Positions 21,001 through 27,000 of a DNA stretch of 41,592 bases are shown here, in pieces. Location of the stretch: the IMG/VR virus record IMGVR_UViG_2874968258_000006. One strand, given 5' to 3'. The position numbers were made by a program. The stretch is from a virus. Its lineage: Duplodnaviria; Heunggongvirae; Uroviricota; Caudoviricetes. The first letter of the stretch is position 1, and the number at the start of each line of letters is the position of its first letter.

Positions 21001-24000
21001 CTCATTCGAAGGGATGAGCATCACGATCCTGCATCCTGAAGATGAAAACGGGAATGTGCGGCTGGTAAATCCCGAGAACTGGAAAGAGCTTGCTGTCGGG
21101 CACCTCCAGAATGTCCGGCGCGGGACGGGTGAGCAGTCTGATTTGATGCTGGCTGACCTTATCGTCAAAGACGAAAGCGCCATTCAGCTTATCGAAGATG
21201 GCCTGCGCGAAGTGTCGTGCGGCTATGACGCGGAGTACGAGCAGACCGAGCCAGGTAAAGCCGAGCAGGTCGATATTACCGGAAACCATGTGGCTCTTGT
21301 CCCTAAAGGCAGAGCCGGAAATCGTTGTGCAATTGGAGACAGAGACACAATGGCAAATCAAAAGAAAAACTGGTGGAACCGCATGCGTGCGGCCATCAAG
21401 ACAGGAGATGCCGACACCATGAACGAACTGGTGGAGTCGGCTCCCGCATCGGTTACAGGAGATGAGGGGGATTTGCCGCAGGGCGTTAATCTCAACATCA
21501 ACCTGTCCCCGCAGCAACCACTACCGGACAAAGCACCAGAGATGGGCGGAGATCCAACCGGCGACAGTGATGATGACCTCAAAACATTACTGAAAGCCCT
21601 GCTGGCTAAGCTGGAAAGAAATGCCACGGGCGATAACGATAATAAGCCTGACGATAATCCGACCGGTGACGGCGAGGACGATGAAGAGGAAACCACGATT
21701 ACTGGTGACTCAGCCTGGCGTGCCGAAGTTATCGTTCCGGGTATCGATCTGAGCCGTAAGATGAAACCGACCGCGTTCAAACGCGAGGTTCTGGCTTCTG
21801 CTGACAAAACGCTGGTTCGCCAGATAGTCGGTGATGCGGATATCCGCAAATTACCGAAACAATCGGTCGACATGGCGTTTAATGCCGTGTCTGAGGTTGC
21901 CAAAGGGCGAAACACCCGCGCCACCACCGGCGATGCACAGCGCCTAAACATGGGCATGACCAGTATCGCTTCCCTGAACAAACAAAACGCTGAATTCTGG
22001 GCAAACCGTAAAGGGTAAAAAATGAATAATGTATTTCTGTACCGGATGCCTGTTGGCATTGCCGGGGCTGTCTCTCGCCCGCAGGACTTAACCGTCGAAC
22101 CGGTGGTCCTTAAATCCGATAACGCCTTCGCTGCCTATGGCCTGGCTGGTAAATACGATGATGACGGTTTTTTCGTGCCGCTGGCAGATGGTGATACCGC
22201 AGACAAGGTGAAGGGGATCTACGTGCGCCCTTATCCGACCACGTCGCAGCCGGACATGGTTCGCCAGGTGGGAACAGGCAAGAACTTCCCGGGCGACGCC
22301 ATGAAGCGTGGCTACGTGACCGTTAATCTCGGTTCTGATTTTGATGCCAGCACTATCAAAAAAGGCGATCCGGTATACGTTGTCGTCTCCACTGATGAAT
22401 CCATCAAAGTGCCGCTGGGTGGATTCATGTCCACGTCAGTCAGTGGCAAAAACGTGGTGCTGACCAACGCTGAATTCACAGGTGCCGGTGATGCTGACGG
22501 CAATGCAGAAATTTCCTGGAAGATTTAAGGAACAGACGAATGAGGTGATGCTGCCAACTTACTGATTTAGTGTATGATGGTGTTTTTGAGGTGCTCCAGT
22601 GGCTTCTGTTTCTATCAGCTGTCCCTCCTGTTCTGCTACTGACGGGGTGGTGCGTAACGGCAAAAGCACTGCCGGACATCAGCGCTATCTCTGCTCTCAC
22701 TGCCGTAAAACATGGCAACTGCAGTTCACTTACACCGCTTCTCAACCCGGTACGCACCAGAAAATCATTGATATGGCCATGAATGGCGTTGGATGCCGGG
22801 CAACTGCACGCATTATGGGCGTTGGCCTCAACACGATTTTACGTCACTTAAAAAACTCAGGCCGCAGTCGGTAACCTCGCGCATACAGCCGGGCAGTGAC
22901 GTCATCGTCTGCGCGGAAATGGACGAACAGTGGGGCTATGTCGGGGCTAAATCGCGCCAGCGCTGGCTGTTTTACGCGTATGACAGTCTCCGGAAGACGG
23001 TTGTTGCGCACGTATTCGGTGAACGCACTATGGCGACGCTGGGGCGTCTTATGAGCCTGCTGTCACCCTTTGACGTGGTGATATGGATGACGGATGGCTG
23101 GCCGCTGTATGAATCCCGCCTGAAGGGAAAGCTGCACGTAATCAGCAAGCGATATACGCAGCGAATTGAGCGGCATAACCTGAATCTGAGGCAGCACCTG
23201 GCACGGCTGGGACGGAAGTCGCTGTCGTTCTCAAAATCGGTGGAGCTGCATGACAAAGTCATCGGGCATTATCTGAACATAAAACACTATCAATAAGTTG
23301 GAGTCATTACCAACAGGGGGATTTACCATGCTTATTGGCTATGTACGCGTATCAACAAATGACCAGAATACCGATCTACAACGTAATGCGTTTATTTGTG
23401 CCGGAAGTGAGTTGATTGTTGAGCGAATGGGAAGTTGGCCAGAAGTTGTTATGGCATAGTGTTTACGGTCGTTGATACAGGTAAACAAAAGCGGGGAGAG
23501 TCATACTCCCTGAATAGTCGCGAAAATATCTGTGGCATTGTCAAATTCGTGTCGGTGACTAATATTTTAGTAATATGCCATTCGAAATGGAGTGCTAACT
23601 TATTGATTTAATTGATGTGCGATATTGTATTTTATCGTGTTTTGTTGTCTGTTTTTTATCCAGTAAGTGTTGTTATGTGTATGAAAGATAAGGGATTTAT
23701 CATTTTTGAGGTGTGTTCATGAAGCAAACAGTTTATATCGCCAGCCCTGAGAGCCAGCAAATTCACGTCTGGAACCTGAATCATGAAGGCGCACTGACGC
23801 TGACACAGGTTGTCGATGTGCCGGGGCAGGTGCAGCCGATGGTGGTCAGCCCGGACAAACGTTATCTCTATGTTGGTGTTCGCCCTGAGTTTCGCGTCCT
23901 GGCGTATCGTATTGCCCCGGACGATGGCGCACTGACCTTTGCCGCAGAGTCTGCGCTGCCGGGTAGTCCGACGCATATTTCCACCGATCACCAGGGGCAG

Positions 24001-27000
24001 TTTGTCTTTGTAGGTTCTTACAATGCGGGTAACGTGAGCGTAACGCGTCTGGAAGATGGCCTGCCAGTGGGCGTCGTCGATGTGGTCGAGGGGCTGGACG
24101 GTTGCCATTCCGCCAATATCTCACCGGACAACCGTACGCTGTGGGTTCCGGCATTAAAGCAGGATCGCATTTGCCTGTTTACGGTCAGCGATGATGGTCA
24201 TCTGGTGGCGCAGGACCCTGCGGAAGTGACTACCGTTGAAGGGGCCGGCCCGCGTCATATGGTATTCCATCCAAACGAACAATATGCGTATTGCGTCAAT
24301 GAGTTAAACAGCTCAGTGGATGTCTGGGAACTGAAAGATCCACACGGCAATATTGAATGTGTCCAGACGCTGGATATGATGCCGGAAAACTTCTCCGACA
24401 CCTGTTGGGCGGCTGATATTCATATCACCCCGGATGGTCGTCATTTATACGCCTGCGACCGTACCGCCAGTCTGATTACCGTTTTCAGCGTTTCGGAAGA
24501 TGGCAGCGTGTTGAGTAAAGAAGGCTTCCAGCCAACGGAAACCCAGCCGCGCGGCTTCAATGTTGATCACAGCGGCAAGTATCTGATTGCCGCCGGGCAA
24601 AAATCTCACCACATCTCGGTATACGAAATTGTTGGCGAGCAGGGGCTACTGCATGAAAAAGGCCGCTATGCGGTCGGGCAGGGACCAATGTGGGTGGTGG
24701 TTAACGCACACTAACCGCTGATTTACCCGGCGCAGTCTCTCCTGCGCCGGTGTATTAACCTATCTCCTGTAACGCATGTCTCTGGCGTTCGACGATATTG
24801 GTCCACAAATTGTCTTTATCGTCAGTCCACAAATTAATCAGCAAGGCAAAAAAGCGTTCTGCTGCCGGAGAAAGCACGGCATCTTTGCGGCGAATAATCC
24901 CCAATGTCCGACGTATAACGGGTTCCACCAGTGGAATACCAATAATCGAAGAATAGGGCGCATGGGGCATTGCCAGACCAGGAAGCGCCGAAATCCCCAG
25001 TCCCGCCTCTACCAGTCCTAATGACGTCGAAAGATGACGCACTTCGTAAAACCAGTCCAGCTTCCAGGGCTTGTCGGCCAGCTGTTGTTCTATCAACAGT
25101 CGGTTGCCGCTGGAGGAGCGTACGCCAATCATTTTGTAACCCACTAACTCCTGCCATTCTACAAGCTGCTTTTTGGCCAATGGATGGTCACGCCGACAGG
25201 CCAGCACGAACGGCTCGTTGACCAGTGGGGTAAAATCAATGGATGAATTTGTGACGTTGTTCATGTTTATGCCAAAGTCTGATTCGTTACACAGCACCGA
25301 TTCCATGCAATTATTCGTGCCTTGTTCCAGAATCCGCACTTTAATATTGGGATACAGCTCATTAAATTTACCGATTGCCAGCGGTAAAAAATAAAATACT
25401 GCGGTCGGAATACACGCTAACGTCACCATACCACGATGATAAGCATTCATATCACGAATATTAAAAAGCGTTTCATCGAATTTCTTTATTAATTCCCGCG
25501 CCTCCGGGAGCAACCTTTTTCCTGCTTTTGTTAACGTAACCTTGCGAGTTGTACGCTCAAATAGTTGAATATGTAAATCTTCCTCCATCTTTTTTATTCT
25601 TCGCGTTAATGCAGGTTGCGTAATATTGAGTAATTTAGCGGCATTGTTAAACGAACTGGACTCTGCCAGTATGACAAATGCCTTCATACTTGATAATTCA
25701 TGCTTCATTATTACTCCGGAAAATGGAAGCGACGATTTTGGGTGGCTGGCCGTTAAAAATTTTAACTGCATTTAGCCAACTTAAATTAATGAAAAAATGT
25801 TATTAATCGTTGAGCTAAAGTCATTAGAGATGCTTTGCCCTTAATGTAACCATATCGCAATAAGTTATGTTTTTAAATTGAGGGCATTATTATGAAAAAA
25901 ATACCCTGGGTAATGACTCCAACTTATTGATAGTGTTTTATGTTCAGATAATGCCCGATGGCTTTGTCATGCAGCTCCACCGATTTTGAGAACGACAGCG
26001 ACTTCCGTCCCAGCCGTGCCAGGTGCTGCCTCAGATTCAGGTTATGCCGCTCAATTCGCTGCGTATATCGCTTGCTGATTACGTGCAGCTTTCCCTTCAG
26101 GCGGGATTCATACAGCGGCCAGCCATCCGTCATCCATATCACCACGTCAAAGGGTGACAGCAGGCTCATAAGACGCCCCAGCGTCGCCATAGTGCGTTCA
26201 CCGAATACGTGCGCAACAACCGTCTTCCGGAGACTGTCATACGCGTAAAACAGCCAGCGCTGGCGCGATTTAGCCCCGACATAGCCCCACTGTTCGTCCA
26301 TTTCCGCGCAGACGATGACGTCACTGCCCGGCTGTATGCGCGAGGTTACCGACTGCGGCCTGAGTTTTTTAAGTGACGTAAAATCGTGTTGAGGCCAACG
26401 CCCATAATGCGTGCAGTTGCCCGGCATCCAACGCCATTCATGGCCATATCAATGATTTTCTGGTGCGTACCGGGTTAAGAAGCGGTGTAAGTGAACTGCA
26501 GTTGCCATGTTTTACGGCAGTGAGAGCAGAGATAGCGCTGATGTCCGGCAGTGCTTTTGCCGTTACGCACCACCCCGTCAGTAGCTGAACAGGAGGGACA
26601 GCTGATAGAAACAGAAGCCACTGGAGCACCTCAAAAACACCATCATACACTAAATCAGTAAGTTGGCAGCATCACCCAAAAAAGGCACTATTGCCTGGTC
26701 TATTCTCTCTTCTCATAATACGTCCGGAAATATGGATAAACTTAAAATTAAGTTTGATTCATTAGCCTCTCACGATATTACCTTTGTTGGTATTGTACAG
26801 ACCGCTAAAGCGTCCGGAATGGAACGTTTCCCGCTGCCGTATGTGCTGACCAACTGCCATAACTCACTCTGCGCCGTCGGCGGCACCATTAACGGTGATG
26901 ACCATGTTTTTGGTTTATCGGCAGCTCAGCGTTATGGCGGTATTTTTGTGCCTCCGCATATTGCGGTCATCCATCAATATATGCGTGAGATGATGGCAGG

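Follow-up and report, generated by a model that had tools for sequence, protein, structure and literature searches.

We analysed a pair of inverted copies of the insertion sequence (IS) IS1, here called IS1 A and IS1 B, and the genes around them in a 41,592-nucleotide stretch of DNA (the window) that is filed as a virus of the Caudoviricetes (IMG/VR record IMGVR_UViG_2874968258_000006). Sequence identity to public chromosomes places the window in the chromosome of Shigella sonnei, where it runs from the mod genes to ybhB. Two accessions found by an exact-protein look-up with Pgl and then aligned, CP032523.1 and CP044191.1, were 100% identical to the window across the 20,996 bp fetched, and HE616528.1 was 99.98% identical in two blocks and lacked one IS copy. 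HE616528 is S. sonnei 53G and CP180280, used below, is S. sonnei isolate 201809330 (lineage 1), both named according to the papers that use them.

Breakpoints were determined against Escherichia coli FDAARGOS_944 (NZ_CP065613), in which the locus is uninterrupted, by aligning the window with BLAST to give collinear blocks; L001 and L003 are the coordinate labels of the reference-locus stretches used. The gene order in FDAARGOS_944 is modC, ybhA, a prophage of about 43 kb (prophage 1), pgl, ybhD, ybhH, ybhI, ybhJ, ybhC and a prophage at the lambda site (prophage 2). The 43-kb prophage starts with its integrase, followed by head, tail and tail-fibre genes, and finishes with ipaHb and a remnant of a pin gene. 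The four IS1 junctions of the window were searched for as separate 70-mers in 5,426 complete E. coli genomes, and their distribution within S. sonnei was assessed with 40-mers over all four junctions in 12 distinct assemblies.

Two IS1 copies around pgl and ybhD

The features at the locus are listed below in window coordinates, with IRL and IRR denoting the left and right terminal inverted repeats of IS1.

22022-22528, + strand: gp24-like head cement gene, 168 aa, intact; Pfam matches Phage_cement and XM1_gp53; collinear with L003 25465-25971
22540-22543, + strand: remnant of the major capsid gene (DUF2184), of which the 4 nt ATGA are left; the gene starts at L003 25983
22544-23311, + strand: IS1 A, 768 bp; insA at 22599-22874, insB' frame at 22793-23296; no target duplication
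23328-23423, + strand: 5' remnant of a pin-type DNA invertase gene (pin') at the right end of prophage 1; matches the 5' end of pinE
23719-24714, + strand: pgl (6-phosphogluconolactonase), intact; the upstream DNA to about 23715 is prophage-derived
24755-25708, - strand: ybhD (LysR-type regulator of ybhH-ybhI), intact; the genes it regulates are missing from the locus
25892-25908, + strand: ybhH remnant (ybhH'), the first 17 nt, ATGAAAAAAATACCCTG, A/T-rich; the deletion endpoint
25909-26676, - strand: IS1 B, 768 bp; IRR end toward ybhH', IRL end toward 'ybhJ; stop codon at Q49 of insA
26677-26684, + strand: CAAAAAAG, the surviving copy of the 8-bp target duplication, equal to ybhJ nt 96-103
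26677-28843, + strand: 'ybhJ (aconitase-family hydratase), without its first 95 nt and upstream region; the remainder is an open frame

A repeat search of the window returned the two copies as a 768-nt inverted repeat pair. An earlier note on this DNA had described two inverted IS1 copies bracketing pgl-ybhD at 22544-26676, and this arrangement was confirmed with exact 768-bp coordinates. The copies are identical at 765 of 768 positions, with mismatches at positions 91, 200 and 716, and both are full elements of about 768 bp with the terminal inverted repeats GGTGATGCTGCCAACTTACTGAT and GGTAATGACTCCAACTTATTGAT. IS1 A begins on the left with IRL (GGTGATGCTGCC...) and ends on the right with ...GGAGTCATTACC; IS1 B is its reverse complement and has IRR (GGTAATGACTCC...) at its left end. 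The Pfam families Zn_ribbon_InsA, HTH_Tnp_IS1 and DDE_Tnp_IS1 were matched, and the A6C motif for -1 frameshifting that links insA and insB' (TTAAAAAAC) lies at IS1 position 305 in both copies alike. The insA gene is intact in IS1 A. In IS1 B the change at IS1 position 200 turns Q49 into a TAA stop (26475-26477, - strand), and therefore IS1 B cannot make its own InsA or InsAB'.

The insA stop of IS1 B was present in 10 of the 12 S. sonnei assemblies, among them those of lineage 1 and of 53G, and missing from CP044151 and CP061367. Its absence from these two suggests later gene conversion from another IS1 copy.

Neither copy is flanked by a direct target duplication. The 9-bp flanks are GACGAATGA on the left and AACAGGGGG on the right of IS1 A, and AATACCCTG and CAAAAAAGG on the left and right of IS1 B. 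When flanks were compared at lengths of 7-10 bp no repeat was found at either copy, so that the absence of 9-bp duplications reported earlier held, and the 8-9-bp duplication expected of the IS1 family is missing from both. This concerns the state of the junctions and not the identity of the elements as IS1. Reverse-complement or swapped pairing of flanks between IS1 A and IS1 B, which would mark an inversion, was likewise not found.

All four junctions were present on one strand in the 12 S. sonnei assemblies, and the two-IS1 structure is fixed in S. sonnei. The lineage 1 genome CP180280 carries IS1 B, its deletion and the insA stop, and lacks both prophage 1 and IS1 A. Because IS1 B occurs there without IS1 A, the two events were independent of each other. 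The IS1 B event dates back at least to the ancestor shared by the S. sonnei lineages sampled (1, 2 and 3).

Two further features of this region were recorded in S. sonnei (L010, which is CP180280.1, 9846-10010; L033 1507-1671). CP180280 has an unoccupied attachment site that overlaps the start of pgl, and a 749-bp deletion in ybhA was present in all S. sonnei examined, CP180280 included; in prophage bearers this deletion adjoins the left attachment site.

DNA missing at the two copies

The breakpoints relative to FDAARGOS_944 coincide with the terminal nucleotides of IS1 A and IS1 B. At IS1 B, the collinear blocks on the left (23312-25916 = L003 45062-47666) and right (26676-30820 = L001 14419-18562) showed that the element stands in place of 2,822 bp (L001 11598-14419), and not of the roughly 4 kb estimated before. 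Gone are ybhH from nt 18, the whole of ybhI and nt 1-95 of ybhJ, with the cut points inside codon 6 of ybhH and codon 32 of ybhJ. The earlier description of ybhH, ybhI and the 5' end of ybhJ as missing was right, also as to codon 6, but the second junction lies only 95 nt from the start of ybhJ rather than in its interior.

At the other copy the loss is much larger. IS1 A stands in place of 19,075 bp of the ipaH-bearing prophage 1 (L003 25987-45061), a scale that the earlier note had missed, between the blocks 14794-22543 (L003 18237-25986) and 23312-25916, given above. The missing DNA begins at nt 5 of the major capsid gene (DUF2184), stops 16 bp short of pin' and comprises capsid, all tail, baseplate and tail-fibre genes and ipaHb, so that the prophage-1 copy of ipaHb in S. 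sonnei was lost through the IS1 A deletion. The final prophage-1 gene ahead of IS1 A is the gp24-like cement gene. IS1 A had been described as joining truncated head genes to a pin remnant, which applies to the major capsid gene but not to gp24, which is intact. Nor did IS1 A truncate pin', because FDAARGOS_943 and FDAARGOS_944, genomes without IS1 A, show the identical truncation; RefSeq annotates it in the reference as 'DNA invertase, incomplete' (L003 45078-45173).

The segment between the two copies is in its native place, pgl-ybhD being collinear with ybhJ-ybhC as in E. coli. In prophage-1 lysogens the native upstream region of pgl is swapped for phage DNA (about 23312-23715). Identity to FDAARGOS_944 was 99.8% for prophage 1 and only 98.5% for pgl-ybhD, a contrast that fits a separate, later acquisition of prophage 1. 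The inversion of the bracketed segment that had been suggested was seen in none of the 12 S. sonnei assemblies, which carry it in one orientation throughout. An invertible segment driven by an invertase of the pin/gin/hin type was ruled out, given that single orientation and the approximately 96 nt of pin that are left.

At the ybhH endpoint, the adjoining deleted DNA (L001 11598-11610, to the right of 25908; CGTGATGATGCGA) matches the IRL terminus GGTGATGCTGCCA at 10 of 13 positions, and only about 0.05% of background positions match as well. IS1 is reported to prefer targets that resemble its own ends, which could explain the match, or the match could be due to chance. Beyond 'ybhJ, two imperfect direct repeats of 74 nt (92% identical) lie between ybhJ and ybhC (28858-29024) and look like intergenic palindromic units of the repetitive extragenic palindromic/bacterial interspersed mosaic element (REP/BIME) type.

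The ybhJ site and the origin of the junctions

The junction searches returned IS1 at the identical ybhJ site in 3 of the 5,426 E. coli genomes, namely the unrelated strains PSS-11, AR_0119 and KFu015 (L004 5994-6777, L016 743-1526 and L017 743-1526). In all three, the 8-bp CAAAAAAG stands on both sides of IS1 and ybhH-ybhI are intact. In PSS-11 the element is oriented as in the window, and in AR_0119 and KFu015 it points the other way. Compared with IS1 B, these IS1 copies have 9-11 mismatches in 768 positions, and the ybhJ flanks show 12-30 differences per 1,500 positions to the window and 17-24 among themselves. Because IS1 and flank sequences both diverge, the three E. coli insertions are independent, and independent insertions at ybhJ nt 96-103 make this position a natural IS1 hot spot. 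The site has been taken by IS1 in at least three or four independent insertions. RefSeq annotates ybhJ in the hot-spot strains as starting within the end of IS1.

At the ybhH junction, as at the two IS1 A junctions, all 5,426 genomes were without IS1, and none had the complete structure of IS1 plus both flanks for A or for B.

Because the IS1 B/ybhJ junction equals that of the simple insertions with an 8-bp duplication, it is the primary insertion, and the ybhH junction is the endpoint of the deletion. The right junction of IS1 B is thus an ordinary transposition junction that keeps its copy of the duplication, the left copy having been removed later. The earlier note had regarded both copies as sitting at products of rearrangement; both do lie at deletions, but at IS1 B only the ybhH side is secondary.

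We favour, at a probability of about 60%, an account in which IS1 inserted twice, independently, and each insertion then led to a one-sided loss of adjoining DNA. For IS1 B, the sequences show that an IS1 landed at ybhJ nt 96-103 with IRL toward the rest of ybhJ, and that the DNA leftward from the IRR end is gone up to ybhH nt 17, that is, 2,830 bp including the left copy of the duplication. This loss may have been a transposase-mediated adjacent deletion, in which the IRR end transposes intramolecularly and replicatively into the A/T-rich start of ybhH and the excised circle is then lost. IS1 A would have arisen by the same kind of event, within a prophage that sat integrated at the 5' end of pgl.

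An IS without a duplication has three established causes: the duplication may have decayed, two IS copies may have recombined, or an adjacent deletion may have taken place (PMC11708052). Duplication decay was excluded here, as kilobases are missing. IS1 B shows what adjacent deletion predicts: a loss from the IRR terminus, an untouched IRL junction and an A/T-rich far endpoint (ATGAAAAAAATACCCTG). At both copies the loss starts at the terminus of a retained full-length IS, and at IS1 B the other flank has the form of the original junction with one copy of the duplication.

Several observations weigh against this account. Adjacent deletion and a crossover between direct IS1 repeats yield identical products. 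The polarity seen at IS1 B has no counterpart at IS1 A, for whose junctions the 5,426 E. coli genomes hold no comparator insertion. No S. sonnei relative was found that has IS1 in ybhJ and retains ybhH-ybhI; exact-protein look-ups for intermediates with Pgl and the pin' peptide returned nothing but intact loci, the structure fixed in S. sonnei and a differently decayed form of prophage 1 (CP026824.1 and CP026875.1, described below). As no intermediate genome was found, the deletion step is deduced from its end product. Finally, the nonsense codon in insA of IS1 B means that transposase was needed in trans or that the mutation postdates the deletion.

The competing explanation that deserves most weight is a RecA-dependent crossover between two direct IS1 copies, the second of them at ybhH nt 17, and possibly a similar crossover over 19 kb at IS1 A. 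Its product would match what is observed, with exact IS termini, no duplication and one hybrid IS1; S. sonnei is rich in IS, with about nine IS copies or fragments in this window alone, and recombination between IS copies is a documented cause of missing duplications (PMC11708052; PMC7373316). It demands, however, an additional, correctly oriented IS1 within 2.8 kb, while IS1 was found at neither ybhH nt 17 nor the IS1 A junctions of any E. coli genome searched and the ybhJ site has been used repeatedly; an intermediate with two copies was in none of the S. sonnei assemblies examined. Adjacent deletion is favoured for IS1 B because one IS1 and one event suffice, whereas the crossover needs a second, untraced insertion. 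The crossover is more plausible for the 19-kb loss at IS1 A than for the 2.8-kb loss at IS1 B. Overall it is a real possibility but a doubtful one: for IS1 B adjacent deletion is the likelier course and recombination between IS copies a lesser though serious one, and for the 19-kb loss at IS1 A the two stand at about even odds.

Insertion of IS1 into a double-strand break left by an unrelated deletion, so that a duplication was never made, is very unlikely. Insertion and deletion in one step without duplication have been seen for other IS elements (PMC11708052), and insertion into breaks has been proposed for some IS5 and IS481 events (Ngan et al. 2024), but the ybhJ junction of IS1 B is base-exact at a site that IS1 transposase repeatedly picks, where a random break is not expected. 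Still less credible, and rejected here, is a single concerted event, either a duplicative inversion by one IS1 or a recombinational inversion between IS1 A and IS1 B that scrambled the duplications. Two inverted and nearly identical copies (765/768) do have the topology of a duplicative inversion. Against this, the DNA between the copies follows the ancestral gene order on both sides, the reverse-complement duplications expected between the two right and between the two left flanks are missing, the lineage 1 genome has IS1 B without IS1 A, and no assembly is inverted. Least probable of all is an assembly artefact in which IS1 repeats were collapsed or mis-joined; CP029794 (4.54 Mb) does have an internally shortened IS1 at both positions, but 12 independent S. 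sonnei assemblies, made in various laboratories and with various technologies, agree exactly in the four junction sequences.

Besides two insertions with one-sided losses, one may speculate that the IS1 A-pgl-ybhD-IS1 B unit moves as a 4.1-kb composite transposon or flips rarely through recombination of its inverted arms, and that the ybhJ site and the IRL-like ybhH endpoint reflect target rules of IS1; we consider this improbable. The unit has an intact IS1 A, two outward-facing IRL ends and 768-bp inverted arms. Flipping of the pgl-ybhD unit, if it occurred, would alter the DNA upstream of pgl and of ybhD.

Consequences, further decay and known systems

ybhH encodes a homologue of the PrpF-family tautomerases and ybhI a putative tricarboxylate transporter; both are repressed by YbhD and linked to malate use (PMC9068703). 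With ybhH and ybhI missing from the locus, ybhD would be an orphan regulator. ybhJ would be headless and cut off from its promoter by an IS1 whose own transcription points away from it. Prophage 1 is probably irreversibly defective and would form no particles.

Other decay was observed in prophage 1. Its portal gene (18694-20160) has two in-frame stops at a length equal to that of the intact homologue, and prophage 1 is therefore also decaying by point mutation. The holin gene carries at its 3' end an IS2 of 1,331 bp (13463-14793), flanked by a 5-bp duplication; this IS2 is missing in CP061367 (L012). The early region contains whole and partial copies of IS600 in both orientations, clustered at 1-2754 and 6480-7745, and is inverted or rearranged relative to the window in CP049179 and JBEAAF010000002 (L033/L034); this variation is an IS600-mediated structural polymorphism within S. 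sonnei. The first copy of a 1,249-bp IS3-family element (11468-12716) is associated with a 374-bp loss that removed the prophage tRNA cluster, of which a single tRNA with a CAT anticodon remains (11397-11470). In CP026824.1 (L021, 3444-6132) and CP026875.1 (L023), which are probably other Shigella lineages, the same prophage at pgl has decayed through other IS elements, with an IS630-type element within gp24 and IS66-type elements in ipaH. This is a convergent erosion of prophage 1.

In the part around 34785-37144, prophage 2, which occupies the lambda attachment site separating ybhC from ybhB, is missing about 42 kb where an IS600 (35549-36812) now lies. What is left is int, interrupted by an IS, with xis and ant on one side, and a tail-fibre gene and ipaHa (38771-40534, - strand) on the other. 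The second copy of the 1,249-bp IS3-family element (30821-32069) lies in the prophage-2 integrase with a 3-bp duplication and is missing from 53G. The possibility that the tail-fibre/ipaH-like DNA at 36800-39550 is the missing piece of prophage 1 in a new place was rejected, as this DNA is the right end of the ipaHa prophage 2, which coexists with prophage 1 in FDAARGOS_944.

IS1-promoted deletions next to IS1 were reportedly described by Reif and Saedler in 1975 for the gal region of E. coli, and the present locus, between gal and bio, lies in the same neighbourhood. Like the gal-region deletions, that at IS1 B starts at one IS1 terminus, keeps the whole IS1, loses the duplication on the deleted side only and has an A/T-rich far endpoint. 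Unlike them, the present case is a fixed natural end product, in which transposase dependence and RecA independence are presumed.

IS-mediated genome reduction in Shigella was reportedly also described by Yang et al. in 2005. The locus shares with that process an expansion of IS1 and a loss of metabolic genes and prophages that has become fixed in the lineage. Gene loss in Shigella is driven by the expansion of IS (PMC7373316); in S. sonnei, IS account for half of the pseudogenes, and much of the fixed deletion is probably IS-mediated but hard to attribute (Hawkey et al. 2020, PMC7373316). In contrast to those cases, the recurrent hot-spot junction makes it possible to attribute the IS1 B deletion in particular and to tell in which direction it ran, which can seldom be done for IS-linked deletions in Shigella.

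In composite transposons, IS1 forms direct repeats in Tn9 and inverted repeats in Tn1681. As in these, a near-identical IS1 pair surrounds a short passenger, here of 2.6 kb. Unlike in Tn9 and Tn1681, the pgl-ybhD passenger is native, and no copy was found in another context. An IS1 composite transposon was rejected, the outer flanks GACGAATGA and CAAAAAAGG forming no duplication and the passenger being in its native context. The IS1-pgl-ybhD-IS1 arrangement is a by-product of two deletions and not a transposed unit.

The two prophages resemble the 'ipaH islands' of Shigella and enteroinvasive E. coli (EIEC): prophage 1 (at ybhA/pgl) and prophage 2 (at the lambda site, ybhC/ybhB) match FDAARGOS_944 prophages that carry ipaHb and ipaHa at their right ends. 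They differ from those of FDAARGOS_944 in that prophage 1 of S. sonnei is without ipaHb and 19 kb, and prophage 2 without about 42 kb, with ipaHa kept.

Taken against these systems, the locus is an already known kind of event, an ordinary case of IS-driven genome decay in Shigella, and the genomes that carry it have been publicly available with annotation for years. It documents one instance in which IS1 eroded ybhH-ybhI-ybhJ, a putative tricarboxylate/malate-related cluster, and prophages in S. sonnei, and its additions are modest, consisting only of the direction of the ybhH-ybhJ deletion and the ybhJ hot spot.

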